Source: Promethearchaeota archaeon (lineage in GTDB: Archaea; Asgardarchaeota; Lokiarchaeia; Sigyniarchaeales; SOKP01). Taken from it: a stretch of 64,000 bases of DNA. A program made the position numbers and the translations under genes. Of this stretch, positions 3,475-28,671 are shown piece after piece. The notes under the pieces are model-generated. The model had not been told where the DNA came from. It did not search any database and saw only the letters and a list, made by a program, of their open reading frames with translations. The stretch lies in contig JBHLNF010000001.1 of assembly GCA_048937405.1 (NCBI GenBank), positions 880,785-944,784 of the forward strand, given 5' to 3'. How positions within the stretch are numbered: position 1 is the first letter of the stretch; each line of letters starts with the position of its first letter.

Positions 3475-4662
3475 ATGAGTGATATTTATGAATTAGTAAA
3501 ACGATATCCTTGGCTCCCTTCTCTAAAAAAGTACTATTCTGATATAGCTTCAAGAAATCCTTTAGATTTTATTAATGACGTTTTTACATCTGATAAATCT
3601 GAGGATCTACAATCTAGAGTTTTAACTATATTCAACGATGCATTTAATAATATTGAACAGCTATCGGAATATGAGCTCGATGAGACAAATATTTATGTTT
3701 ACTTAATATTAAGAATTATCCTTTATATTTTAAATAACAAAATAATTTCTAATCGAATAGCAAACATCTATTCAAAAACCACATTCAATGAGTTAAATAA
3801 AGAAAATGAATATAATCTATATTATATTTACCAAGATCTAAATTTAGAAGTAATTTATGAAGAACACCCAATAGTCTATAAAAAACTAGTCATAAAAGAA
3901 CAACAAGAACTATTTAAAACGAATTTTAAGATATCTTATTTAGATTATTTAAAACTTGCTTCTAATCTAAAGGATGAATATCGAAAATTAGTAAATAATG
4001 CACTTCTAAAGGGTTATTTATATACTAAACCTGAAAATATTAATAGATTGTTGCAGGAATATGTTCGTTTAAAATTTTTAACTCAAAATAATGAAATTTC
4101 TGCGGAAATTAAAAATTTAAAAGAAACTCTATTAAAAATTCAGGAGTTCAAAAAACTATTTGATAATATAACAGCTATTTGGGATTTAAAAAAAGAAGAT
4201 TTTGAATACGCAGTTAATATTACCTTTAAAGAAGGAAAAGATATTTCAAATTTATTTCCACCTTGTGTAAGAGAAATACTTTCAAAAGCCCAAGAGGGTC
4301 AAAATTTAATACATACTGAAAGACTTTATATTTTATGGATCTTAAATTCACTTGAATATCCTCAGGATAAGATAGTCAATGTATTTTCTACATTACCTGA
4401 TTTTGATGAAGAAAAAACTATTTACCAAGTTAAATATGCTATGAAAAAAGGATATACTCCCTATTCATGCAAATCGTTAAAATCCTATAATTTATGCTTA
4501 GCAAAAAAGTATAATGATGAATTATGTCTAAAGGGGTATTTTTCAAGATTACAAGATACACAAAAAGAAATTTCACATCCTCTTAAATATATAGAAGTCA
4601 AACAATATCGTGACTCTAAGAAATTAAAAAATACAAAAGAACAAACTCTAGATAAACAATGA
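3475..4662 (+). CDS. priL: DNA primase large subunit
   Basis: FPPC, GQNL.H.ER, YQV, YTPYSC..L...NLC and HPL Fe-S domain motifs; overlaps priS start. Confidence 0.9.
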   Translation: MSDIYELVKRYPWLPSLKKYYSDIASRNPLDFINDVFTSDKSEDLQSRVLTIFNDAFNNIEQLSEYELDETNIYVYLILRIILYILNNKIISNRIANIYSKTTFNELNKENEYNLYYIYQDLNLEVIYEEHPIVYKKLVIKEQQELFKTNFKISYLDYLKLASNLKDEYRKLVNNALLKGYLYTKPENINRLLQEYVRLKFLTQNNEISAEIKNLKETLLKIQEFKKLFDNITAIWDLKKEDFEYAVNITFKEGKDISNLFPPCVREILSKAQEGQNLIHTERLYILWILNSLEYPQDKIVNVFSTLPDFDEEKTIYQVKYAMKKGYTPYSCKSLKSYNLCLAKKYNDELCLKGYFSRLQDTQKEISHPLKYIEVKQYRDSKKLKNTKEQTLDKQ

Positions 4663-5942
4663 ATTCTAACGATTACCTAAAACGCAGATTTAAGGAATAT
4701 TATAAAGATAATAGAGATAAGATTCCTTTTGTCAGTTTGTTTAATAAAAGAGAATTTGGATTTATTCCATGGGATCATCAAATAAGAATGATAAGACATA
4801 TGGGTTTTGCAAATGGAGAAAATTTTATACAACATTTAATAAATAACGGACCCAGACATGTTTATTCGAGTGGTTCTATTTATAACAATCCGGAGAACCA
4901 GGATATGATAAAGAAAGGATATGAAGGTTGTGATTTCATTATTGATATTGATGTTGATCACTTTTATACTCCATGTAAAGAAGATCATGATATATGGTAT
5001 TGTAAAGAATGTGGGAAAAATGGTAAGGGAATGATAAAAAAATGTCCAAAATGTGGGAAGTCAAAACTTAAGAAAATAGCGTGGATATGTGAAGATTGCT
5101 TAAATGCGGCCAAAAACGAGATAATCAAGTTAATTTATGATTTTTTATTACCTGATTTCAACATCGATCTTAAAAAAATAAAAATTGCTTTTTCTGGACA
5201 TAGAGGATATCATATGAAAATTGAAGATCATAATCTTAGATTACTATCAAGTGATGAACGTAGAGAAATAATTGACTATATTACAGGAGAAGGTATTTCT
5301 TTTGAAATTTTAGGTTTAAGAAAAATTGGAGATATTGTTTTTGGCTTTTCAAAAGAAACAATTGGTTGGTCTCAAAAAATTACCAGAGAAATTGAAAAGA
5401 TTTTAAAAATGTCGAGTGTTGAAATTGAGACTCTATTATCAGATAAAAGAAAGTTTAAGCTAAATCAAAATTTTATTGAAAATTTTCTTAACTATAAAGA
5501 TAATTTCCTCAAGATAATTAAGAGTAGTAACATGAATAATTGGACTCTTGTAAGTTCAAACATAAATACTTGGTATAATTTTCTGAAACCAATTGCTGAT
5601 CAAATTGGAATTGAAGTTGATGTACCCGTATCAATAGATATCCATAGACTTATCAGGTATCCTGGATCTTTACATGGGAAAACAGGTTTTAAAGTTCAAG
5701 AGTTATTACTTGATGAAATCGAGATATTTAATCCCTTAGATGAACAAACTGAGAAATTAGATCCAATCGTTTTTGTTAGTAAAGTAAAAACAACTCAAAA
5801 ATTAGAAATTATTGAATCTGATGTACCAGCAACAAAAATTAAAGGTGAAACCTATGGACCATATCAATTAGGTGAGAAAATAGAGGTTCCTCATCATATT
5901 GCAGTTTTTTTATTATGCAAGGGAGTTGCCAAATCGAATTAA
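4659..5942 (+). CDS. priS: DNA primase small (catalytic) subunit with Zn-ribbon insert
   Basis: REFGF, DIDVD, FSGHRGYH and DIHRLIRYPGSLHGKTG motifs; CxxC..CxxC insert. Confidence 0.95.
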   Translation: MNSNDYLKRRFKEYYKDNRDKIPFVSLFNKREFGFIPWDHQIRMIRHMGFANGENFIQHLINNGPRHVYSSGSIYNNPENQDMIKKGYEGCDFIIDIDVDHFYTPCKEDHDIWYCKECGKNGKGMIKKCPKCGKSKLKKIAWICEDCLNAAKNEIIKLIYDFLLPDFNIDLKKIKIAFSGHRGYHMKIEDHNLRLLSSDERREIIDYITGEGISFEILGLRKIGDIVFGFSKETIGWSQKITREIEKILKMSSVEIETLLSDKRKFKLNQNFIENFLNYKDNFLKIIKSSNMNNWTLVSSNINTWYNFLKPIADQIGIEVDVPVSIDIHRLIRYPGSLHGKTGFKVQELLLDEIEIFNPLDEQTEKLDPIVFVSKVKTTQKLEIIESDVPATKIKGETYGPYQLGEKIEVPHHIAVFLLCKGVAKSN

Positions 5943-5996
5943 GTTAAAAGATTTAAACTTAAGAATACTGTTAATTATAATAAAGTAATAAATTCG

Positions 5997-16775: not shown

Positions 16776-18080
16776 TTAGATAAATTTTTTCCATGAATCT
16801 AAATTTTGGGGATATTTTGCATTTTCTCCCAGCAGTTCTTCAATCCTTAATAATTGATTGAATTTTGAAGTCCGATCTGACCTACAGGTCGCCCCAGTTT
16901 TCAATTGACCTGTACAGAGTCCAACTGCTAAATCAGCAATAAACGTGTCTTCGGTTTCTCCAGAACGATGTGATACCATAACATTAAATCCATTATTAAA
17001 AGACATTTTTGCAGCTTTTATAGCTTCAGTTAAAGAACCTATTTGATTCACTTTTAATAATAGAGCATTTCCTGCTTTCTCTTTTATCGCTTTCTCAAGA
17101 ATTTTAATATTAGTCACTGTTATATCATCATCAACAATTTGAATAGATTTATCAACTTTAGCGGATAAATTCGAAAAGTTTCTAAAGTCTTTTTCATCAA
17201 AAGGATCCTCAATAGATTTGAATGGATATTCACGGATTAGGTCCATATAATACTCCAATAATTCTTCTTCAGAAAGTTTTTTACCATCAATATTATAAAT
17301 ACCTTCTTCAAAAAATTCACTAGCGGCGGCATCCATTCCCAATACAAAATCAGTGCCTATTAAAAATCCCGCTGTTTCTATTGCTTCAATAATTATATCT
17401 ACTGCTTCAGATGTTAGAGTTAAATTTGGAGCAAATCCTCCTTCATCGCCCACATTAATTGCAGATGGGCCATACTTCTTAGCTAATAATTTTTTCAATG
17501 TTTGATAAACCTCAGAAACATTTTGTATTGCTTGAGAAAATGAATTAGCACCTACGGGTAAAACCATAAATTCTTGAATGGATAAGTTGTTTCCTGCATG
17601 TTCACCCCCATTTATGATGTTACAGCTAGGAATTGGCAACAAGTAATCATCCCTGGTTTTTCCATATGCTAATTCATACAGATGCTTAAACAATGGAACC
17701 TCAGATAATTGAGAAGCTAATTTAGCAACTGCTAATGAAACAGATAGAATTGCATTCGCACCTAAATTACTCTTATTTTCTGTTCCATCTATAGAGATCA
17801 TTTCTTCGTCGATTTTAGTTTGTTCTCTTACATCAAATCCTATTAATTTTTTAGCTAGAATTTCATTAACATTAGACACTGCTTTTAATACATGTTTTCC
17901 CATGAATGCTTTTCCACCATCTCGCAGTTCAAGAGCTTCCAACTCACCTGTTGATGCCCCTGAGGGAACAGCAGCTCTGGAATATTGTTTTCCAGCGAAC
18001 ACATCACATTCTACAGTAGGATTTCCTCGTGAATCTAAAATCCACCGAGCTTTAATTTTAGTAATTTTATAATCAGTCAT
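16776..18080 (-). CDS. eno: Enolase
   Basis: [42 protein letters not shown]. Confidence 0.98.
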
Positions 18081-18224
18081 ACTAATCTTATTTTTACTAT
18101 TATTATGAATATTAATAAGGAATTAAGCAAATTTAATTCTTAAGATATATTATTTAAAAAAAAAAGACTCGAATATGTTTCAAAAACTGGTATAATAATA
18201 AGATTAATGTCAGATAAATCTAAA

Positions 18225-18593
18225 TTAAGATGAGTTTTCTTTGTATTTCTTCCTCTTTTCCATGAATTTTTTCTTAGGAAGCAACACGATATCTACCTTA
18301 AGACCCTTTAGAGAGAATTTAATAACATTGTTGCTACGTCCCTTTTGTACTTGGCTACCCTTGTAATGATTCCTTAATTTCGGGATAATGTCATCATAAA
18401 CTTTTTGCTTTTGATATGTTTCAGCTATCCAGAAATCCATGTCTAAATCGCTTTTATCCCTAAAAGTTCCTTCCCTGCGAGATCCTTCCTTTGCTACACC
18501 TCCCACTTTCCAACCAGATTTAGTTTTAAGCCAATCAGATATTGATATCCAAAGGTTTTTATACCTTTTGGCATAACTTTCTCGTTCACTCAT
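18225..18593 (-). CDS. Minimal Pol-beta-superfamily nucleotidyltransferase (OAS/CD-NTase-like or MNT-like core)
   Basis: GS.R.GT....SDLD plus third Asp in KVDIV; only 122 aa. Confidence 0.8.
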   Translation of the reverse strand: MSERESYAKRYKNLWISISDWLKTKSGWKVGGVAKEGSRREGTFRDKSDLDMDFWIAETYQKQKVYDDIIPKLRNHYKGSQVQKGRSNNVIKFSLKGLKVDIVLLPKKKFMEKRKKYKENSS

Positions 18594-18680
18594 TAAATCA
18601 TATCTTGAATTCTAATTTCACAATTGGAGATCATTCATATCAATATTATTAAGCATTTAATTTTTTTGTAAGTTATATAG

Positions 18681-19679
18681 ATGAAGAAAATTAGAAATGA
18701 TTATTTTGAAGATCTTCCTTCAAATGATAAATTTGAAGTTCCTCATTCAAAAAAGGCATATAATGAGGCTTTGGATCTTTCTAGTGAGATCTTGAAAAAC
18801 ATTGAGTTGAGTGAAATTTCTCTAGCCTTAATTGCATTAAAAACTATTCGACTCACACGTTTATTAAATGATTTTGAGATGGTGAGGATTATGGAATTGG
18901 AAATCTCTGGATATCCAAAAATTGATGTTTACGAAGAAAATATTGAATTCCGTGAATTAGAAAGATTGGCAAGATTTGCAGGAAGGATAAATTTAGAAAT
19001 AAATGGATTTTTAAACTTTATTCCAGATGCAATAGAAAAATTAGAGAATGAGAAAAAAATTATAAGTAAGAGAATTGACACAGCAAGCGATTTAGATGAG
19101 CGTAATAAGTTACAAAAAAGATTTCAGGATGTCTCAGAAATATTAGCACATCGGCGAAAATTTATTCATGAATATATTACAAAAACCTACTTAGAACTAA
19201 ACTATTCTACCATAACTGAAGATATCTTTAGTGTGATAAAACAAAATGTTGATCAAAAAATAGGAGAAATAGTTCCTAAATCTATTGAGAAATTTGTTGC
19301 TATATATGAAAATCTCACTTCTAAAAATCCTGAAAATTGGTCAAACGCAGTACATAGTTGTCGAAGAATTCTGAAGGACTTAGCAGATGCTATTTATCCT
19401 CCAACTATGAATATCAAGAAAGGGATAGATGGGAAATCTCATGAACTTGGTGAGGAACAATATATCAATAGAATTATTGAATTTATTACTCAAAAAAGTA
19501 AATCAGAAACCTATATTAAAATAGTAGGATCGCATCTTAGATTTATAGGGGATCGTTTGAAAAGTATTTTAGAGGGTTCTCATAAGGGTACTCATACAAA
19601 CATTACAGACAGAGAGGAAGCAAATCGCATCGTGGTTTATACTTATCTCCTCTTAGGTGACATTCTTAGCTTAGTATAA
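18681..19679 (+). CDS. AbiTii-like N-terminal domain protein with C-terminal HEPN/Abi-like helical domain
   Basis: L..I.LK..RL.RLL.D......ELE.SGY pattern; C-terminal NAVHSCRRIL..LAD and HKGTH. Confidence 0.65.
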   Translation: MKKIRNDYFEDLPSNDKFEVPHSKKAYNEALDLSSEILKNIELSEISLALIALKTIRLTRLLNDFEMVRIMELEISGYPKIDVYEENIEFRELERLARFAGRINLEINGFLNFIPDAIEKLENEKKIISKRIDTASDLDERNKLQKRFQDVSEILAHRRKFIHEYITKTYLELNYSTITEDIFSVIKQNVDQKIGEIVPKSIEKFVAIYENLTSKNPENWSNAVHSCRRILKDLADAIYPPTMNIKKGIDGKSHELGEEQYINRIIEFITQKSKSETYIKIVGSHLRFIGDRLKSILEGSHKGTHTNITDREEANRIVVYTYLLLGDILSLV

Positions 19680-19697
19680 AGCTTGATGAAGTTCTAA

Positions 19698-21158
19698 TTA
19701 CCCTTCTAAGATTTGGATTTTTACATCTTCTAAATAGGAATACCAATCTTCATTCGACTGGAACTTTTTATTAACCCATATTTTTAATAGATACCATAGA
19801 AACTCTTTAAAATTAATTTGAATTTCTTCCATTAATCTTCCATGATAATAAATCTGAGGAATCCCATCATATAGAAATTCAGGTTGGAAATCGGGTTCTT
19901 TTATTTCTTCTGGATGAGCAATGTTATTTCGTACTGTAAAAGCATCGTTAAGGAATTTCTCTAAATTTTCTTCATATTTATTGTTAATATCAAAGTGAAT
20001 CCACTTCTTACTTTCTATCTCACTCATTTTTTTAAAAACTTTGATAACAGGTTCACGCTTATTTCTTGTATTTCCAACCAAATCTACACCAATGGACTTT
20101 TTATATAACAATCCTTCAAACGTGGATACTAAAATGAATACCTTTAAATCAGCATATTGAATGTTATTCAGCGTACGGATAGTGTTTACTGCATATCGAA
20201 AAATTCGCTTTGATTCTGATTCTCGATCATCCCCATAAAAAGCATGATAGTACCACTCATAATGCGATTGCCAATTAGATTTCCAAAAGATCCATGTATC
20301 AGTGTCATACATTCGTAAATAAGCGTTTGGACGGGGAAATGAATAATGAATGTATCCCTTTACAAATGGAAAATAATCTGAAAAAGCTGGAAGTTTCACC
20401 CAATAATAATGACTTATTGAAAATGGAAAAAATTCATGGCGATCTGAATATAACATAAAGAAATCTGGAATGCTAAGCACTATCTCGTCAAATTCTTCTT
20501 TTCCATTAGGATCTAAGGGATAATATGGCATCGCTGTATAAGGTTCCTCATCGTAAAATCTTTTTGTTTTGTTATAAGAGACTTCGATGCTTGTTGTTGC
20601 ATCTTTAGCCCATTTCTGCTCTTCCTTGCGTTTTGACCAAAAAAATGGAGGATTTCTGAAATCTTTAATATCATAGGGCACTTCATTATCCGCAATATTG
20701 ATAAAAATATGATTAATATCGAGCGAAAGGCTTTTTACATCCTTTAGTATAATATTAAATGCGGGGATGAGAATTTGGTAAGAAAAATAATCGGGAATGA
20801 GAACCTCGGACTCTAATAAAACATACTGTGAATGGAAATGGTCCTTAAGTCCCTGATTAGCTTTTAATTCTGCTTTCTGCATTTTTGTTATTTTTATTGA
20901 TTGATTCTGACAATATATATACATATTTCCTAAAAAATGCATCAAATAAACAGGAAGAATGTTAAATTCTTCACCTGCAACTGCTCTCCATTGAAATTTT
21001 CCAATTTCAGAAGTCTGAGTTAAATTCTCAACGTATTTTTGCCCAATTTTTTCATTAAAGATTTTACTTTCATAACCCCTTTCGAAATTTGCGAGATAAT
21101 GCTGTACTAATTTCCATGTTTCTTCTTTTATTTTTGGTAATTCTACTAAATTTGTCAT
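19698..21158 (-). CDS. HEPN-domain protein (ApeA-like architecture)
   Basis: C-terminal STFEGLL ... RNNIAH (RxxxxH). Confidence 0.7.
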   Translation of the reverse strand: MTNLVELPKIKEETWKLVQHYLANFERGYESKIFNEKIGQKYVENLTQTSEIGKFQWRAVAGEEFNILPVYLMHFLGNMYIYCQNQSIKITKMQKAELKANQGLKDHFHSQYVLLESEVLIPDYFSYQILIPAFNIILKDVKSLSLDINHIFINIADNEVPYDIKDFRNPPFFWSKRKEEQKWAKDATTSIEVSYNKTKRFYDEEPYTAMPYYPLDPNGKEEFDEIVLSIPDFFMLYSDRHEFFPFSISHYYWVKLPAFSDYFPFVKGYIHYSFPRPNAYLRMYDTDTWIFWKSNWQSHYEWYYHAFYGDDRESESKRIFRYAVNTIRTLNNIQYADLKVFILVSTFEGLLYKKSIGVDLVGNTRNKREPVIKVFKKMSEIESKKWIHFDINNKYEENLEKFLNDAFTVRNNIAHPEEIKEPDFQPEFLYDGIPQIYYHGRLMEEIQINFKEFLWYLLKIWVNKKFQSNEDWYSYLEDVKIQILEG

Positions 21159-21197
21159 TTTACTAAGGCTCTAGTGATTTTATTCTTAATTAAGTGA

Positions 21198-22397
21198 TCA
21201 TAATATTCTACTAATCTGACTATATAATCTTTCGGCATCTTTATTAGTCTTGCCATAAGCGTTTAATACTGGTTCATATAACCTTTTAATTACCTCTAAT
21301 TTACCCGTTGAAAGTTCCCCTATATTTACAATAACTTTTATAGTATCAAGGTTTAACTGCCTAGGATTAGAGGGAGGTTGTAGAAGTGACCAGCTTGAAA
21401 TTCCCATAATTTTCAATTGAATAGTTATTTCTCCAAAATAGAGAAAATTTTTGTACAATTCATGTAAAAAGTCAAAAAATCCCAAATAATAATTAGATAG
21501 ATATACCAAATTTAATTTTTGTTTTTGAGTCAATTCCTCCTGAGAATCAAATGGAACTTCATATCTCAAATTATAAATTATTATTCCATCTTTATGAATT
21601 AAAATATTTTTAAGTCGTTTTGATTCAGAATCGTAAATATAATCTTTCTGTCTAACAATAGGAGTTCCTTCAAACAATTCATCAGTTTTATTCGAATTTA
21701 GAAATAATTTTTTCGTAAGAAAACTAAGAATATCATCATTAAATATCGTTTTTCTAATATCTATAGGTCTAATTATTAAAAAAGTGCTTAAGATTAAATT
21801 TCCATGAGTATCCTTGCCATCAGTGAAGGTATAACCACTTAAATAATTATTTCGACGCAGATAATCTAAAAATTCTCTCTCAATGGAACCTACTAAATCG
21901 TCTTTTTCTTTCTCAAGTGTAAAAAAAGAATCAAAAGCTTGCTCAATTTCACTGTTCACCATAGGACTTGAAGTAAATTCTGTCCGTTTATAATATTTTT
22001 TATAACCTTTGGCTTGATGGATTCGAGGGTATTTTTTTGGTATAAATAATACATAGACATGACCTTCTATTTCATCAGTTTTAACTGGGATAGGAAATAT
22101 TCTTATATTTAATGGTGGATCTATTCCATCCTTAGTAATTAAATCGATTCTTTCTCTTACATCAGTTTGTAATATCGGAGTAATCTTCTTAGGTAGATGT
22201 TCTTTTTCATCAATACCATATATAATATTTCCACCATCTGAATTCGCAAAGGCTGAAATATCTTTTGCGATTTCGTTATTGTTCCCACTGACTTCTCTTT
22301 TATAATCTAGATGATGACTTTCTTGGATTTGATTTTTAATCAAACTTTCAAGATATTCTTGATTAGTGTTTTCGAAATCATTAGGTGTGATTAACAT
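21198..22397 (-). CDS. AlbA_2 (Schlafen-like) domain protein with unknown C-terminal domain
   Basis: E...LDYK, DISAFANSDGG.IIYGIDE, YYKR....S.PM. Confidence 0.88.
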   Translation of the reverse strand: MLITPNDFENTNQEYLESLIKNQIQESHHLDYKREVSGNNNEIAKDISAFANSDGGNIIYGIDEKEHLPKKITPILQTDVRERIDLITKDGIDPPLNIRIFPIPVKTDEIEGHVYVLFIPKKYPRIHQAKGYKKYYKRTEFTSSPMVNSEIEQAFDSFFTLEKEKDDLVGSIEREFLDYLRRNNYLSGYTFTDGKDTHGNLILSTFLIIRPIDIRKTIFNDDILSFLTKKLFLNSNKTDELFEGTPIVRQKDYIYDSESKRLKNILIHKDGIIIYNLRYEVPFDSQEELTQKQKLNLVYLSNYYLGFFDFLHELYKNFLYFGEITIQLKIMGISSWSLLQPPSNPRQLNLDTIKVIVNIGELSTGKLEVIKRLYEPVLNAYGKTNKDAERLYSQISRIL

Positions 22398-22915
22398 AAA
22401 AATTACCCTGAAAATACTTTTATCCTTAAATTTGGATTAATAACCTTATATTAGATTATTTCTGATAATTTAAAAGATTGTCCAATCTTTTGTACCAAAT
22501 GAATCCCAAAGAAATAGGATTCAAAAGCCATATCTTGAAATTAAATTTTGTTTTCTTTATAATTTTATTTATATATTCATCATTCAAGCCGAAATTTAAA
22601 GTTTGAAGGTAAAATGAAAAACTAATTTTCTAAATGAGATTAAAAACGCTTATTTAAAGAGTTAAACTTTGTTCCATCTGTTAATTCCGAAATTATTAAA
22701 TAGAAAAGTCTAGTTATATATCCGATTTTTAAATATTTAGCATTTCCTAATTTGTTGCTTATCTTATTGAATATTTCATTCTTAATGGAACTATTCTAGG
22801 AGGGGACAACAGGGGGAAGGGAAAAAAAAGAAAGATTATTCCTTCAATTAGTCTAGTAATTGGAGTTAAATTGGAAAAATGTGTTTTATAAGTCTAATTT
22901 TATCAAAATCTGAGT

Positions 22916-23833
22916 TTAAAAAGGATTTGGGGAATACCTTCCTCCCCCTGATCTCTTCATATCAGATAAACTAAAGATGACTAGACTATGTGAGTGGAAA
23001 AGCCGTTGATCTTCAAGAGCTTGACAAAGTTTTTGTAGAAAACTAATAATACCTTTAATTTGATTTTCTATTGTCAAATCATTAAAGAATCCTTCTCTAA
23101 ATCCCTCTTCTTGCCACATTTGGTTTTCATGCAAGATTATAGGGTAATCTTTAATAAGTTTAGAAGGAAAAAATTGGGGCCAGCGAGGATTATATGGTAT
23201 TTTTCCCCCATATTTTTTTGAGAAATCTACTATACCACTTACTTTATATGGAAGATCCCAATTCAATAATAATCCCTTCCGCATTATATAGAGATAATCA
23301 AATCGTTCACTTGGTTTGATGTCATTCTCAGTTACTACTTTTGTTATATTTTTTAATATTGAACCAAATTTCTTCCAGATTGTATCATACGCGAAAATAA
23401 AACAAAGTGGGGGATGAACCTGCCACCTTGGATCACCATCTAATCTTTTAAAAAAATTCATTCTTCTTAAATCTCTTATTTTTAGAAGGATTTCTTTTAA
23501 ATTTTTATTACTTAAGGTTGTTTTTACTTCAATACACATTGCAACACTCTCAATAAGAAAATATTCCGTTTCTGAATATATACGAGGGTATTTGGTTGAA
23601 TTCCAAATAACTATATCTTGCTCAGTTGATTCATTTCCATCTCGATCAAGTAATACCTTACTTCTAGCCAAATCAAATTTTCCAGGTAAAAACGATTTTA
23701 GGAAGTTGATGAGAACATCCTCATTTTCTCTTCCTTTTATACCCTGATGATTATAAAGAGAATTTAATTCACTAACTCTATTATTAAATTTATCATAAAT
23801 ATATTCCCAAAGGCGATTCTTCTTTGATTTCAT
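22916..23833 (-). CDS. DUF6602 / NucC-like PD-(D/E)xK nuclease
   Basis: G.E.E..L..FL...LP, D.DG..S.E.DIVI, IESV...IEVKT. Confidence 0.78.
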   Translation of the reverse strand: MKSKKNRLWEYIYDKFNNRVSELNSLYNHQGIKGRENEDVLINFLKSFLPGKFDLARSKVLLDRDGNESTEQDIVIWNSTKYPRIYSETEYFLIESVAMCIEVKTTLSNKNLKEILLKIRDLRRMNFFKRLDGDPRWQVHPPLCFIFAYDTIWKKFGSILKNITKVVTENDIKPSERFDYLYIMRKGLLLNWDLPYKVSGIVDFSKKYGGKIPYNPRWPQFFPSKLIKDYPIILHENQMWQEEGFREGFFNDLTIENQIKGIISFLQKLCQALEDQRLFHSHSLVIFSLSDMKRSGGGRYSPNPF

Positions 23834-24065
23834 AAAATCCTCCTTACGTAAAACCTATATATAGTATTTGGATCAAAATAATTTAAATTTTGTATTGTTT
23901 TAAATATATTTAAAATCCATTCTACTACTACTTTTTTCATGAGGGGATACATAAAGTGGATTGAAGTGAATTATCATGGAAAATTAGGAAAAAGATATAT
24001 TTCTGGTTTGTCTATTATTTGTAAGACAAAAAATTTAAAAAAGTAATAATAAGATTTTTGCTATA

Positions 24066-24866
24066 ATGAGTAATTCTGAAAAAATAAAGAAGAAAAAAAA
24101 AAAGGCATTAAGAAGTTTATATCAAAGAATTCAGAGAGAAGCAGAGAATGTAATTAATCAATGTCTAGCTTCCTCATCTAAAATAAAATACGCCCAACAA
24201 GCAGCGCCTAGGGAAATAATGATTAGATTATTAGATGAATATAATATAAATTTAAAATTTGTAGAAGAAGCTACAGAATGTAATTTTTTATTTAAAATCC
24301 AACCTTCAAATGATACATGGGATATGTTTGGACAATTATATAGGTTGGTGACAGAGTGTGAAAAAATAGTCCATATATTAGAGGAAGAAAAAACAGATAA
24401 AGGGATAACTCAAAAATTCATAAATCAATTAAAATCATTGAAAGATGATATTGAAAAAGAAAATATAATCGACTATGCTATAAAAAAGAATCTCGAAAAA
24501 TCTATTGATCTTTTTGAAAGAGGAGAAATAATATGTTCAGCTTTATTTTCAAGTAGAGTTATTTCATATACAATTGATCAATTTACTATTGATAAGAAAT
24601 TAATAGAGGAGAATGATGCTAAAAAAAAAAAAGAGAATTTTATTAACTTAATCATAAAAGATTGCATTAATAAAGGATTAATCGCAAAAGATAATAAAAA
24701 TTATATTAATAATTTACTCCAATTCATAAAGTTAGCTAGAAATAAATTAACTCACAATGTTTTATTTTTTCCTGAAGCAGCTGAATGTTTAGGCATTTTA
24801 TCCAATTCAATAGAATTAATCAAATTAAAAAATAAATTTGATGATTATCTTTCAAGAAAGGATTAA
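24066..24866 (+). CDS. Putative HEPN-like protein
   Basis: All-helical; C-terminal RNKLTH (RxxxxH). Confidence 0.55.
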   Translation: MSNSEKIKKKKKKALRSLYQRIQREAENVINQCLASSSKIKYAQQAAPREIMIRLLDEYNINLKFVEEATECNFLFKIQPSNDTWDMFGQLYRLVTECEKIVHILEEEKTDKGITQKFINQLKSLKDDIEKENIIDYAIKKNLEKSIDLFERGEIICSALFSSRVISYTIDQFTIDKKLIEENDAKKKKENFINLIIKDCINKGLIAKDNKNYINNLLQFIKLARNKLTHNVLFFPEAAECLGILSNSIELIKLKNKFDDYLSRKD

Positions 24867-25689
24867 ACATTCAATCTCTTTATTCTTATAATTTCGAAGA
24901 TCATCTTTTTTACAATCATAGAATTAGACTTGGTAACAACTTTTAAGTTGTTAATTTATCCAATATAAATAAGGTTATTAATACTATTAAATCTCTACAA
25001 CTAAGGTTTACATATTTGGAATATAGTTCAATACAATAATTTAAGAAAGAAACTTTGTAGCAATCATTGAGAATGTGGATTAAAAATATATTGATTTATT
25101 AGATAAAACTAAATATGCAAGGAATATTAATTGTCATTTGTACTTCAATTCATACCATTATTGATAAAAGAAAGAGGAAATTAACCTACTTCTAAAAAAT
25201 TAAAAATTATATTGTAAAATCTTTGTGATAAAGAGATCGAATTATATGAAGAGTTTATAAAAATATTAATTTTTTAATTATCCTTTTTTTCAAAGGAATT
25301 TTCATTGAAATCAGACTCTGAATTTACCTTTAGTATTATGTAATAAAAAATAAATATTAGTTATAAAATGAAAAAAATTAATTAAAGTTAAAAATTAAAA
25401 TAATGAGGAATTATTTGGAAAAATAAGAAAACCTAAATTTCAAATAATAATTATATATTGAATAAGCATCTTTTTTCTTTATTAGATTTAAAGAGTCTTT
25501 CCTATTATAATAAAATTTTTCTATTTCTCGGATTGCTTATACTACTATAAGGTATTTAGAGATTTTGAAAAAAAATATAGATTTTTAAAAACAATTGCAT
25601 AAATATTTATTGAGATGTATTATGTTTTAGATCCAAATAATAATTCATAATATAAAATATATTTTAGTTAATAAAATAAGGGTAGATGG

Positions 25690-27564
25690 ATGAATCAAAA
25701 TGAAAAAAAGGGATTAGATTCAAGAGATATGCATAACAGAGTTCTAAAGAAAAATTCTGAATATTATTGCACTAATAATTTCAAAAAATGCCATGATCAA
25801 AATAATACAATTAATAATTTTAATGAAAATGCTCAATTTCAAGAATATAATATTCTCAATAATAAAATTTTAAACTACACTATAAATCCGAATTTTACTT
25901 GCGAAGAAATGAATATAATTCATTACATACTTGAAGAAGCTGAAAATAAAAATATAAAATTAAAAGTATTCAAAAGAATAATTTCAGAAGAGCCTCCTTC
26001 AGGAGGTGAAAGAATTGCTTTAAATAAAGCAATATCCATACTGAAAAATCTCATTGACGAAGGAAGATTACCGATATATAGTAAGATAGATGAAATAGTA
26101 AGTCCTTATAAAGAAATTCTCGGAGATTATATTAATAAAGATCACCCTGAATTTGAATTTTATACTAATCAAACAAATAAGAAATATGTTCAAATCATCT
26201 ATGAAATTATAGCATTATTTGGAATGGGGACAACTACAGATACATACATAGGACATACTGCATTTAATAAGAAGGAAAGAATGATCGCCCATTTACGTGA
26301 ATCTTTAAAGCTATTTGTTGAAATTTATGAATTAAAAACACAAAATTCAATAATTGATTGGTTAGATGTCAAAAAAGATTCTCCATTAAAATCAGTTGAT
26401 TATTATCCTCCAAGATTCATTTTAAAAACATTCTTAGAAGGTTTAAAGAGACTTAAGGGTTTTAATAGTATTAAGGAACTTTACACATTTTCAAGAGGTA
26501 TTATTTCAGCTAAAAATGATTCAACTATTCAAGCCGAATGTGAAGAAATAGTAAATGAATTACTAGAAAATAAATTGATTGCAATGAATATACTAGAAGT
26601 TCACTTTTCTACTAAATTCGTATATGAAAATGAAAATTGGTATAAACTTCCACAGAATTATAAAAAAAAAGGGACTGTCTATCCAGAAGGATTAAATATG
26701 CATAACAATATAGAAGGCAAATCAGATTATAGAATGATACCTTTGTATGATACATCTTTCTTAATTTCTATAGGATATAAACCACCAATTATTGTAGGAA
26801 TACTCAACGAAGTGTATGGAGAAGATTTTAATGAGGTGCTAATTAGAACTAGATTGAATGAATCTTTTAATAATTCTCATTATAAAGAATTATTAAAATG
26901 TGTTTTTGAAGAAGTTTTGGAGAAAAAGCTAACTCTTAATCGGAAATTAATTACAAAAGCAATTAATCGTGGACAAGACTTTTTTTTTAGTGATGAATTT
27001 AAACAATGGTATGGAGAATCCGTTTCATTAAAAGAATTAAAGAAAGTTTTGAGAAGCAAAAAAATACATAATGAAGAATTCAATTGGGATAATATTCAAA
27101 AAGAAATTAATGATTATTATGAAAATAAGCTAATAAAAGGAATTCCTAAATCGCAATGGATTAGTTGGTTTATTGATAAAAGAATCGGAATGGATGATAT
27201 CGGTGAAAAAGCTGGTTACTCTGATGGACGGAGCTTTAGTAATCACTTCTGGAAACTTAATCGTGTTCAAGAAATTTTTGGAGTCTCAAGTATGAGAGAA
27301 GCAGTTGTAAAATATAGACGTAAAAGAGTTATTAAAGAATTAAAAAAGGGACAAACTATTTCAATCAACACTTTAGAAAGAATTTTTGTAGATATCTTTG
27401 GTTATAGAACAAAACAAAATTATTATAAATCTAGTTATTATTGGGCAATTATGAGTAGAGTGTTTAGAGAAATCTTCCCTGAATTTGATAATAACGATAA
27501 TTTATCTCCCAAACAATATCTTCAAGATTTGGTTTTTAAAATTTCATTGGGAGAATTTAAATAA
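25690..27564 (+). CDS. GIY-YIG-like endonuclease with C-terminal HTH-like region
   Basis: IIYEI..TYIGHT..ERM..H, later ENE.WY..GTVYPEGLN; C-terminal MDDIGEKAGYSDGRSFSNHF. Confidence 0.6.
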   Translation: MNQNEKKGLDSRDMHNRVLKKNSEYYCTNNFKKCHDQNNTINNFNENAQFQEYNILNNKILNYTINPNFTCEEMNIIHYILEEAENKNIKLKVFKRIISEEPPSGGERIALNKAISILKNLIDEGRLPIYSKIDEIVSPYKEILGDYINKDHPEFEFYTNQTNKKYVQIIYEIIALFGMGTTTDTYIGHTAFNKKERMIAHLRESLKLFVEIYELKTQNSIIDWLDVKKDSPLKSVDYYPPRFILKTFLEGLKRLKGFNSIKELYTFSRGIISAKNDSTIQAECEEIVNELLENKLIAMNILEVHFSTKFVYENENWYKLPQNYKKKGTVYPEGLNMHNNIEGKSDYRMIPLYDTSFLISIGYKPPIIVGILNEVYGEDFNEVLIRTRLNESFNNSHYKELLKCVFEEVLEKKLTLNRKLITKAINRGQDFFFSDEFKQWYGESVSLKELKKVLRSKKIHNEEFNWDNIQKEINDYYENKLIKGIPKSQWISWFIDKRIGMDDIGEKAGYSDGRSFSNHFWKLNRVQEIFGVSSMREAVVKYRRKRVIKELKKGQTISINTLERIFVDIFGYRTKQNYYKSSYYWAIMSRVFREIFPEFDNNDNLSPKQYLQDLVFKISLGEFK

Positions 27565-27693
27565 AAATTTTATTGAAATTTAATTTAAAACGCTAAAAAT
27601 ATATAAAAATAATTTGGAATGATATCTTTAATTATATTAATATTTATAAAATTAAATGTTTAGGATTTAATACTATATTATTAATTAAATATA

Positions 27694-28671
27694 ATGATGG
27701 ATAAAGTAGACAATCTTCCATGGGTTGAGAAGTATCGACCTAGAATACTAGATGATGTAGTAAATCAAGTGGGAATTATAAAAAGATTAAAACAATTTGT
27801 TAAAGACAAATCTATGCCTCATCTTATTTTTGCAGGTCCCGCAGGGACGGGAAAGACAACTTCTGCGTTAGCTATGGTAAGAGAATTATATGGGAGGAAG
27901 ATGGCAGTTAATAGGACATATTTAGAATTAAATGCTAGTGATGCTCGTGGAATTGATGTGATCAGGACTTTTATAAAAGATTTTGCAAAAGCACGACCTC
28001 CTGTGGATATTGCTTTTAAAGTATTAATATTAGATGAAGCGGATAACATGACGGCTCCCGCCCAACAAGCCTTAAGGAGAACTATGGAAAAATATACTAA
28101 GAACTGTCGGATGGTTTTAATTTGTAATTATTCAAATAAAATAATCCCTCCAATTCAATCTAGATGTGTAGTGTTTAGATTTGCTTCTTTAAATGCTGAT
28201 GATATTAAAAATAGGATAAAATATGTAGCACAACAAGAAAAAATTACGTTAATTCCTGGAGGATTAAATGCAATAGTAAATGTTTCTCAGGGTGATTGTA
28301 GAAGAGCAATTAATTATTTACAATCTTGTGGTACAATTTCTAAAAAAATAGATGAAGAAATTGTTTTTCGTGTTGCTGGAGAGGTTCCTCCTGAAAAGAT
28401 TAAAGAAATTTTAAATACTGCTATACAAGGACAACTATCCTTATCGATTAAACTTTTAAATGAATTGATTAAAGAATATGGACTTTCAGGACAAAACATC
28501 ATAAAAAATTTGCATAGAGAAATTTATGATTTAAACATAAAAGAAACTTTAAAAATAGAATTGTCAAAATTATTAGCTGAATTTGAATATCGGTTAAGCC
28601 AGGGTGGTACTGAAGAGATTCAACTTCAAGCTTTAATAGCTAAAATTGTCTTGCTGCAAAACCTTGAATAG
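27694..28671 (+). CDS. rfcS: Replication factor C small subunit (no intein)
   Basis: PWVEKYRP, GPAGTGKT, ELNASD.RG, DEAD, SRC. Confidence 0.97.
   Translation: MMDKVDNLPWVEKYRPRILDDVVNQVGIIKRLKQFVKDKSMPHLIFAGPAGTGKTTSALAMVRELYGRKMAVNRTYLELNASDARGIDVIRTFIKDFAKARPPVDIAFKVLILDEADNMTAPAQQALRRTMEKYTKNCRMVLICNYSNKIIPPIQSRCVVFRFASLNADDIKNRIKYVAQQEKITLIPGGLNAIVNVSQGDCRRAINYLQSCGTISKKIDEEIVFRVAGEVPPEKIKEILNTAIQGQLSLSIKLLNELIKEYGLSGQNIIKNLHREIYDLNIKETLKIELSKLLAEFEYRLSQGGTEEIQLQALIAKIVLLQNLE

Follow-up and report, generated by a model that had tools for sequence, protein, structure and literature searches.

Free-standing homing endonucleases that carry flanking DNA along with them are well known in T4-type phages (PMC2988022, PMC2790892). 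In Asgard archaea, the Heimdallarchaeum element HeimM2 lies between two conserved genes, and a homing-endonuclease homologue that it carries has been proposed to make its insertion site-specific (Wu et al. 2022, PMC8813620). Here, we analyzed a 64-kb window (i.e. the whole stretch of DNA under study, G000:C7:880785-944784) of a Promethearchaeota (Loki-type Asgard) chromosome, in which seven open reading frames (ORFs), g1 to g7, lie between eno, encoding enolase, and rfcS, encoding the replication factor C small subunit. We found this interval to be a true genomic island that is composite and lineage-specific. Probably, it is a layered composite that was seeded by a homing-type GIY-YIG gene (g7) together with a recombination-site repeat of 47 nt, and whose cargo (g1-g6) acts as defence-type genes.

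The locus combines known kinds of arrangement, i.e. free-standing homing endonucleases, defence hotspots, and cassette arrays. Like HeimM2, the island is an Asgard mobile element without a recognisable integrase. HeimM2 has an rRNA-intron-type endonuclease and lies between a 16S rRNA gene and a tRNA gene (PMC8813620), whereas here the predicted enzyme is of the GIY-YIG type and the neighbours are eno and rfcS; the cargo also differs, and the present island was built up in layers and not taken up as a single element. The GIY-YIG homing endonucleases of T4-like phages (Seg; I-TevI as structural reference) resemble g7 in the modelled I-TevI fold and in having separate helix-turn-helix (HTH) domains. 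In both cases, the gene is intergenic between conserved genes, is present or absent at one site, has flanking DNA carried along, and occurs in degenerate copies. Unlike the phage genes, g7 resides on an archaeal chromosome, encodes 624 aa, and has an insert of ~95 residues and an AraC-type double HTH. Also unlike them, it belongs to a unit that substituted its own sequence for the promoter and initial codons of an essential gene of replication, and cargo gathers 5′ of g7. In the literature, we found no description of an archaeal GIY-YIG homing endonuclease that is both chromosomal and free-standing.

The insertion site was compared across a family set of 134 genomes from 13 genera, 108 of which carried eno and rfcS on one contig. 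In 102 of these 108 genomes, the two genes are divergent neighbours with a spacing of 103-271 bp, which corresponds to an empty site in about 94% of them; in this genome the spacing is 9,613 bp. The six exceptions comprise (i) this genome; (ii) G099, with an IS605 OrfB/TnpB gene (433 aa) inside the interval (L010, G099:C14:43300-45100), which is an independent insertion at the site; and (iii) four genomes of genus g15, where all four sampled genomes (including G047, L011, and G055, L014) have one class-I S-adenosylmethionine (SAM) methyltransferase gene (280-289 aa) between eno and rfcS. In G085, covered by two overlapping contigs, an interval of ~2.6 kb holds an EcKL/APH-like kinase and an unknown ORF. 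Orthologues of eno across the genus are 79-93% identical. The borders of the island and the unit next to rfcS are as follows:

16776-18080, minus strand: eno (enolase), left flank (Pfam Enolase_C, E 5e-120; Enolase_N, E 2e-52)
18081-18165, no strand: remnant of the ancestral eno|rfcS intergenic region, aligning with the ~110-bp intergenic region of empty sites
25285-25331, plus strand: 47-nt dispersed, recombination-site-like repeat, left edge of the g7 unit (nhmmer match over 25286-25331, E 7.6e-16)
25690-27564, plus strand: g7, predicted free-standing GIY-YIG nuclease with HTH DNA-binding domains, 624 aa (GIY-YIG motifs in 22 homologues)
27568-27705, plus strand: right junction with replacement rfcS promoter and first codons (90% identical to G085; common to all g7-bearing loci)
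27694-28671, plus strand: rfcS (replication factor C small subunit), right flank (Pfam Rep_fac_C, E 2e-21; AAA)

The border alignment showed that ~85 bp of ancestral intergenic DNA beside eno were retained in this genome. Alignment to empty sites holds to about 18161 and then diverges (left junction at ~18161-18165), and the left breakpoint is identical in G085, G089, L021, and L022. On the other side, the rfcS-proximal part of the intergenic region was swapped together with the first four or five codons (MMDKVDN here vs. MSFEN at empty sites), and rfcS orthologues from empty sites align from residue 5-6 onward only. Orthologues of g7 with 70-80% identity were found directly upstream of rfcS in six metagenome contigs, and two of these have eno at a distance of just 0.7-1.0 kb and lack g1-g6 altogether. 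All six metagenome loci, as well as G085, agree with this genome in the left breakpoint, in a right junction of ~105 nt, and in the changed N-terminus of rfcS, which at g7-bearing loci follows the pattern MxDKVxN. As these junctions are shared by all g7 loci and G085, the insertion is of single origin.

As the first layer of the proposed build-up, a unit consisting of the 47-nt repeat, a leader of ~360 nt, g7, and a tail of ~130 nt entered the compact divergent eno/rfcS promoter region. About 35 bp, including the rfcS core promoter and the first four codons, were replaced by the version carried in the unit. The structure of this layer was observed in the alignments, and from it we infer the mechanism, which was most likely intronless homing. 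In such a scheme, g7 would cut the empty site and repair would copy the g7 allele, while the altered 5′ end of rfcS would render occupied alleles immune.

Phylogenies of the flanking genes separate the loci that share these junctions. Carriers of g7 or its border are spread over three or more positions in the eno tree, and likewise in the rfcS tree. Constraining the g7/border loci to one clade was rejected in approximately unbiased (AU) tests run after both trees had been inspected (p = 1e-7 for eno, 6e-6 for rfcS). Because the same junctions occur in at least three clades that are separate in both trees, we conclude that the g7 allele moved laterally into one site. The incongruent placement of L022 between the two trees was not significant (AU p = 0.34).

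Synonymous divergence (dS) of g7 was 0.13-0.54, compared with 0.49-2.07 for the flanks of the same genome pairs. Between this genome (G000) and L021 or L022, g7 had a dS of 0.42-0.46 and the flanks (rfcS, eno, truA, and the next large ORF) of 1.26-2.07; the corresponding values were 0.30 and 0.83 for G000 and L019, and 0.13 and 0.49-1.17 for L021 and L022. We regard the low dS of g7 as supporting, not decisive, for lateral spread. Counting against repeated transfer, the flanks exceed g7 in dS by much the same ratio (about 2.6- to 3.7-fold) in all pairs compared, also where G089, the sister genome, is involved, and a locally reduced synonymous rate could explain part of the low values instead. 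Also, no co-conversion gradient was seen within rfcS.

Several copies of g7 are degraded. In G089, only the last 170 codons of g7 are left, joined to the left junction next to eno, and in G085 g7 was lost while the downstream tail was retained. In two SMTZ1/Ga0209427 contigs (L019:2173-4038 and L020:3717-5582), an in-frame TAG splits the g7 orthologue into ORFs of 116 and 446 aa, which may point to a pseudogene or to faulty assembly. Copies that are truncated, deleted, or interrupted by a stop agree with the usual decay phase of homing genes. At another fixed site, flanked by a 119-aa ORF (orf119) and a radical-SAM/ROK/PGM gene row, a paralogue of g7 (31-35% identity) was found in G018 (L018:4504-6243), G097 (L017:501-2894), and G089 (L016:4013-5707). 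In G089, this second site has extra cargo 5′ of the paralogue, namely a TPR protein and a 243-aa ORF, and in the present genome the site is empty (G000:C28:214932-214954).

The assignment of g7 was derived from conserved motifs and a structural model. The motifs IIYEI, YIGHT, R197, H201, ILEVH, E315, and GLN336 (N336) were seen in a 22-member alignment of a family that is small (23 clusters among 1.84 billion representative proteins). Of these, IIYEI, YIGHT, R197, E315, and N336 are invariant or nearly so and supply the GIY-(10-11 aa)-YIG motif together with the Arg, the catalytic Glu, and the metal-binding Asn typical of such enzymes. An AlphaFold2 (AF2) model built with the family alignment had a predicted local distance difference test score (pLDDT) of 80.5. 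The best VIA match of this model among 48,161 chains was the catalytic domain of I-TevI (1ln0_A; Z 7.0, root-mean-square deviation 2.6 Å, 90 of 92 residues, model residues 167-339), followed at lower scores by T4 EndoII (Z 5.3) and the GIY-YIG defence nuclease PD-T4-3 (9u75, Z 4.8). Residues 480-620 matched AraC/MarA-type double HTH domains (Z 6-6.9, 103-110 residues aligned), an additional small HTH lies at residues 345-400, and the helical insert of ~95 residues sits inside the GIY-YIG domain. Probably, g7 is a GIY-YIG homing-endonuclease-like gene and the founder of the locus. Other search results weigh against this assignment: g7 had no Pfam match at E up to 10, the family profile returned only noise against PDB sequences, including those of solved GIY-YIG proteins, and a fold Z of 7.0 is middling. 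With the whole model, Foldseek gave nothing below E 0.3 against PDB, and the domain-level VIA search was needed.

The match to PD-T4-3 also bears on a different explanation, in which g7 is a defence nuclease (type IV restriction-like GIY-YIG) or a DNA-binding regulator, and the site is an ordinary defence hotspot in which genes are swapped solely by homologous recombination via the conserved flanks eno and rfcS. Such a role would agree with an intact g7 that has a ratio of nonsynonymous to synonymous divergence (dN/dS) of about 0.3, and with surrounding cargo that is defence-like here and partly so in L023 (PDC-S39-like and PDC-S33-like proteins); the uniform ratio of g7 to flank dS across pairs could likewise be a rate effect and not a sign of mobility. 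However, g7 stays in place while the cargo switches to non-defence genes (an EcKL kinase, a CBM96 protein), and carriers of identical junctions are polyphyletic in the eno as well as the rfcS tree, with flank dS giving no sign of co-transferred long tracts. Replacement of the promoter and first codons of a neighbouring essential gene, the truncated and deleted copies of g7, and the presence or absence of a paralogue at a second fixed intergenic site beside housekeeping genes likewise speak for a homing-type gene. We thus consider a defence or regulatory role of g7 unlikely.

The left edge of the g7 unit is formed by the 47-nt repeat at 25285-25331, a feature that went beyond an earlier description of the window made from its letters alone (hereafter the sequence-only reading). 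Copies with 93-100% identity exist in nearly all genomes of two genera, and the 24 copies in this genome are all intergenic. Many of these copies lie in an array (G000:C28:330000-343500, L030), in which the repeat separates single accessory genes, encoding GrpB, an acyltransferase, an EcKL kinase, a GNAT protein, and a zinc-ribbon protein. Homology to L019-L021 upstream of g7 starts exactly at the repeat; in L020, two copies bracket one gene. In two congeners, G130 and G121, the repeat is followed after ~70 nt by an operon encoding a 172-aa protein and a 302-aa tyrosine recombinase (Pfam Phage_integrase). This association holds in five of five operon copies whose upstream region is on the contig, and the operon is multi-copy in these genomes (G130:C168, L054; G121:C129/C122/C7, L057-L059). 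Since the repeat heads the recombinase operon in congeners, it is probably the recombination site of the 302-aa enzyme.

Integron and dif-module cassette arrays similarly have a short site between single-gene cassettes, as in the C28 array, and a recombinase operon adjoins the site in congeners; also integron-like is that homology between genomes switches exactly at the 47-nt site. Unlike in integrons, the site is not an attC (there are no R′/R′′ boxes), the recombinase is absent here, and only one copy is found in the island. A search of this genome for the 172-aa/302-aa operon was negative, and the 64-kb window contains a single copy of the repeat, with no second copy bracketing g1-g6. A role of the repeat in the uptake of g1-g6 is weakened by this single copy at their border and by the missing recombinase. 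With one repeat in the window, g1-g6 do not form a cassette framed by such sites. Predicted RNA structure of the repeat was not convincing (the window copy had a z of -0.03, a long copy one of -2.2).

At the opposite end of the island, the left junction (18160-18180) reads AAAAAAGACTCGAA, matching TTTAAAAAGACTCGAAC in the leader of the recombinase unit of G130 and G121. The match between junction and leader covers eight bases (GACTCGAA) and may be due to chance (8 specific bases) or may be a recombination scar.

As a second layer, some cargo may have come by site-specific recombination in trans or in the past, and the rest would have come by ordinary recombination. Insertion of the g7 unit, which includes the 47-nt site, was what first made the eno|rfcS site permissive for cargo. 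An integrative element with its own integrase was not recovered: there is no integrase gene, tRNA target, or pair of flanking direct repeats. More specifically, no Pfam integrase was found among the seven island ORFs and no tRNA gene in the 64-kb window, and the island ends showed only short AT-rich chance matches when searched for terminal repeats or a target duplication. The sequence-only reading had reported that no integrase, tRNA, or terminal repeats were visible, in agreement with these searches. Its term 'integrase-free' is accurate in cis, but the GIY-YIG gene is a signature of mobility, and so is the 47-nt site, which in congeners precedes an operon for a tyrosine recombinase. No Rfam family was found in 18000-27800 at E up to 1. 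GC content is genome-like across the interval (0.27-0.32), with the exception of the non-coding segment 24867-25689 (0.20).

Different lineages carry different cargo between eno and the 47-nt repeat. At the equivalent position, L019 and L020 have genes for a CBM96 protein, an EcKL kinase, and a 220-aa ORF. The cargo of L023 spans at least 10 kb and includes a RelA/SpoT-TPR protein (PDC-S33-like) and a PDC-S39-like protein. Turnover of the cargo in the eno-rfcS interval, which the sequence-only reading had put forward for comparison among relatives, was thus found, as other alleles carry EcKL-like kinase, RelA/SpoT-TPR, PDC-like, or IS605 TnpB genes. The gene set is no core feature of all relatives either, given that the site is empty in 102 of 108 family genomes. 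The Asgard origin proposed in that reading holds. Calling the site a 'hotspot' is appropriate for lineages with the g7 unit, but elsewhere it is almost always empty. Core-flanked defence hotspots of bacteria likewise have conserved flanks, variable cargo, and concentrated nuclease and Abi-type genes; unlike those, this site is empty in about 94% of family genomes and the cargo of sister lineages is partly non-defence.

In the present genome, the seven intact ORFs, which lie in mixed orientation between eno and rfcS, have exactly the positions given in the sequence-only reading. Those other than g7 form the following modules:

18233-22571, no strand: module A, four-gene block g1-g4 (91% nt identity to G054:C6:391857-396155)
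18225-18593, minus strand: g1, putative minimal nucleotidyltransferase (NTase), GS...DxD...D, 122 aa (weak NTase matches)
18681-19679, plus strand: g2, probable AbiTii-domain protein with uncharacterised C-terminal helical part, 332 aa (PADLOC AbiTii, E 2.5e-9)
19698-21158, minus strand: g3, protein with C-terminal HEPN domain and ApeA-like architecture, 486 aa (R410-N-N-I-A-H415 invariant in 9 homologues)
21198-22397, minus strand: g4, Schlafen/AlbA_2-domain protein, 399 aa (Pfam SLFN_AlbA_2, E 2.3e-17)
22916-23833, minus strand: module B, g5, NucC-like PD-(D/E)xK nuclease (DUF6602) with C-terminal extension, 305 aa (DUF6602, E 2e-23)
24066-24866, plus strand: module C, g6, DUF4145-like HEPN protein, 266 aa (RNKLTH, i.e. 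Rx4H, motif)

The cargo consists of at least three separately acquired modules (g1-g4, g5, and g6) under purifying selection, with dN/dS of 0.11-0.29. A nucleotide search of the family with 18166-25689 retrieved the g1-g4 block in G054 (Promethearchaeota metagenome-assembled genome LW40_45, genus g14) at another locus, in the same gene order and orientation, with a dS of 0.17-0.31 and dN/dS of 0.11-0.29 relative to our copy. The enolase of G054 is 78% identical at the protein level, its own eno|rfcS site is empty, and a copy of the 47-nt repeat lies 90 nt past its g1-g4 block. From this comparison, the block is a case of horizontal transfer between genera. Copies of g5 with 84-92% nt identity were found in G122, G123, G048, and G042, belonging to three other genera (g10, g17, and g21); g5 has a dN/dS of 0.14-0.15, and in G122, G123, and G048 it is present without other island genes. 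A homologue of g6 with 46% identity in G122 is likewise followed by the 47-nt repeat. In G122 and G123, homologues of g5 and g6 are located beside defence-type genes (FRG, RiboL-PSP-like HEPN, cyclase).

It is very improbable that the seven genes arrived together as one integrative element, e.g. a decayed provirus, plasmid, or integrative and conjugative element, and constitute one multi-gene defence system. The genes are contiguous with no housekeeping gene between them, and the uniform, genome-like base composition would suit such an arrival, but at least six other loci have g7 at eno|rfcS and lack g1-g6, G054 has g1-g4 but not g5-g7, and in G122, G123, and G048 g5 is found without the other genes. 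Divergence from the nearest copies also differs by module (dS 0.17-0.31, about 0.6, and 0.3-0.5), and there is no integrase, att duplication, terminal repeat, or viral gene. One island of seven stand-alone defence genes, as the sequence-only reading had it, therefore does not describe the locus: g7 is an older, laterally spreading, homing-like resident, and g1-g4, g5, and g6 are separate modules. As a third layer in the build-up, these modules were each acquired separately.

Domain assignments of the cargo differ in strength. The NTase call for g1 is weak: NTP_transf_2 was matched at E 0.007, under the Pfam cut-off, the PADLOC cyclase profile PDLC00808 at E 5.5e-6, and NCBIfam CBASS_cyclase_a at E 1e-6, with g1 covering only positions 18-130 (the N-terminal catalytic part) of this 317-position model. 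Relative to its orthologue in G054, g1 has a dN/dS of 0.11. For g2, the Pfam AbiTii score of 26.9 bits is just short of the cut-off of 27.6, which both the G054 orthologue and the paralogue in this genome exceed. It is the only cargo gene with a paralogue in this genome (43% identity, on C20, with no NTase adjoining). This paralogue (L009, G000:C20:546-3984) is located at a contig end, beside a DUF1848 gene and a 402-aa ORF with a LAGLIDADG_3 domain. The full model of g3 was poor (pLDDT 51.7), and its C-terminal part alone was usable. For residues 334-465, all VIA matches were HEPN proteins (Z 4.7-6.2), including Cas13, AbiA, AF_0298, a HEPN toxin, and sacsin; the C-terminal part alone matched HEPN_RiboL-PSP at E 0.0096, and Atlas linked g3 to Apea-like HEPN clusters with a score of 0.94. 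Finally, g4 belongs to a large Promethearchaeota family, in which the best full-length relative outside the transferred block is 38% identical. A conserved g3-g4 pair was not supported, as homologues of g3 (51-56% identity) lack a matching g4 counterpart and the pair is known from the transferred block only.

Residues 135-261 of g6 align to HEPN models with template modelling (TM) scores of 0.58-0.67 by target, and Atlas placed g6 with DUF4145 clusters (score 0.95, 190-193 shared features). The HEPN Rx4-6H motif is found in both g3 (RNNIAH) and g6 (RNKLTH), and all HEPN scores are moderate. ApeA and other single-gene HEPN systems as well as MNT-HEPN pairs are comparable in that g3 and g6 have an Rx4H HEPN domain behind unrelated N-terminal domains and g1 is MNT-sized. 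Assignment of g3 to ApeA was rejected, since it matched no ApeA profile in Pfam or PADLOC (HEPN_Apea/ApeA_NTD1) and the only link is the Atlas similarity of 0.94. We also rejected g1-g2 as an MNT-HEPN pair (the genes are divergent with an 87-bp spacer, and the g2 paralogue has no adjoining NTase) and g2 as part of AbiT (it has no co-oriented neighbour, g1 being divergent and g3 convergent; no AbiTi model was searched). The combination of genes matches no canonical multi-gene system, as had been noted from the sequence.

The nuclease g5 was assigned to NucC by PADLOC (E 3.7e-16) and aligned with solved NucC chains (7zgv, E 3.5e-7; 6p7o, E 1.8e-6; range to 9e-6). Like the NucC effectors of cyclic oligonucleotide-based antiphage signalling systems (CBASS) and of type III CRISPR, it retains the catalytic D...E-x-K motif in this alignment. 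Unlike these effectors, g5 has no adjacent cyclase, ~60 extra C-terminal residues, and no Cas10 or SMODS in its genome. Searches of the genome for SMODS (PF18144), Cmr2, and Csm1 found none, except for one sub-threshold Csm1 match of 72 residues. In G123 (G123:C89, L027), a 212-aa ORF (4174-4812) is arranged tail to tail with a g5 orthologue of 83% identity (5063-5980). This ORF matched the PADLOC oligonucleotide cyclase (E 9.4e-11), is 25% identical to g1, and, together with g5, adjoins a RiboL-PSP-like HEPN ORF. Possibly, the two genes could be a minimal cyclase/NucC pair. Directly 3′ of g5 in the window, 22791-22913 has matches of 74-87% at unrelated places in G089, G097, G078, and G044 and may be another short dispersed element.

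The arrangement in G123 raises the question of whether g1 and g5 form a dispersed CBASS-like pair, with a cyclic oligonucleotide made by g1 activating g5. As g1 resembles CBASS cyclase models over their N-terminal catalytic part (E 1e-6 to 5e-6), g5 is homologous to NucC and has an orthologue in G123 that adjoins a cyclase-like ORF, and no other source of cyclic triadenylate (cA3) was detectable in the genome (SMODS, Cmr2, Csm1), such a pair is conceivable. However, g1 has 122 residues and lacks the C-terminal lobe of cGAS/DncV-like nucleotidyltransferases (CD-NTases), and it travels with g2-g4 and not with g5, G054 having g1 and no g5. In addition, the g5 orthologues of G122 and G048 have no adjoining NTase, and in the window the two genes are 4.3 kb apart in different modules. 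We consider this pairing quite improbable. CBASS as such was not supported for the locus, because g1 is too short for a full-length CD-NTase, belongs to a different module from g5, and travels without it, and because the genome is without SMODS.

Most likely, the cargo is a set of largely independent abortive-infection/toxin-type nucleases, as judged from their domains. Each gene would mostly act alone; once a virus infects, RNA would be the substrate of the HEPN proteins and DNA that of g5. An antiviral role of the cargo is thus inferred from domain families. All seven domain calls of the sequence-only reading were recovered (by Pfam, PADLOC, Atlas, or fold matches), although several on weak or indirect evidence, and its label 'defence-like' applies as far as accessory, variable genes with defence-type domains are concerned, the defence function itself being a prediction from these families. 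What detracts from an antiviral role is that several domain calls are weak, g1 and g2 being below Pfam cut-offs and g3 and g6 without a curated family match, and that AlbA_2 proteins are often annotated as regulators.

Instead of being antiviral, the cargo might consist of selfish toxin/addiction genes or of nucleic-acid-binding regulators that persist through mobility. This would be in line with the movement of modules between genera, the lack of evident sensor or antitoxin partners, and the fact that HEPN and MNT proteins are classic toxin-antitoxin parts; AlbA_2 homologues are named 'helix-turn-helix domain-containing' or 'ATP-binding' in their source records. On the other hand, each of the six cargo genes encodes a domain repeatedly encountered in defence islands, homologues of g5 and g6 have other defence-type genes as neighbours in G122 and G123, and purifying selection acts on the cargo in two hosts. 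We therefore doubt that the cargo is selfish or regulatory, although this and the antiviral reading are not mutually exclusive.

The formation of defence islands in archaea is little understood, and Asgard genomes are watched for their link to the origin of eukaryotes. This locus shows a defence-gene island forming without an integrase of its own. It also offers a dated, stepwise example, in which the empty site, the founder allele, alleles of differing cargo, and decayed alleles can all be compared. Transfer between genera is recent, as seen from the g1-g4 block with 91% nt identity vs. about 78% amino-acid identity of enolase. Compact candidates for assays comprise (i) the ApeA-like HEPN protein; (ii) the DUF4145-like HEPN protein; (iii) the orphan NucC-like nuclease, with no detectable cA3 source; and (iv) the 122-aa NTase. 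If our interpretation of g7 is true, it would be a chromosomal, free-standing archaeal GIY-YIG homing endonuclease that rewires the start of rfcS. More tentatively, Loki-type Asgards may possess a two-tier route to defence islands without a resident integrase. In this route, a chromosomal, free-standing homing endonuclease of the GIY-YIG type would invade the promoter region of an essential gene of replication and bring a replacement promoter and N-terminus for this neighbour ('home-and-rescue'), and a short recombination site carried with it would then serve as a landing pad for nuclease/toxin cassettes from other genera; the g7 paralogue may have done the same at a second housekeeping locus.

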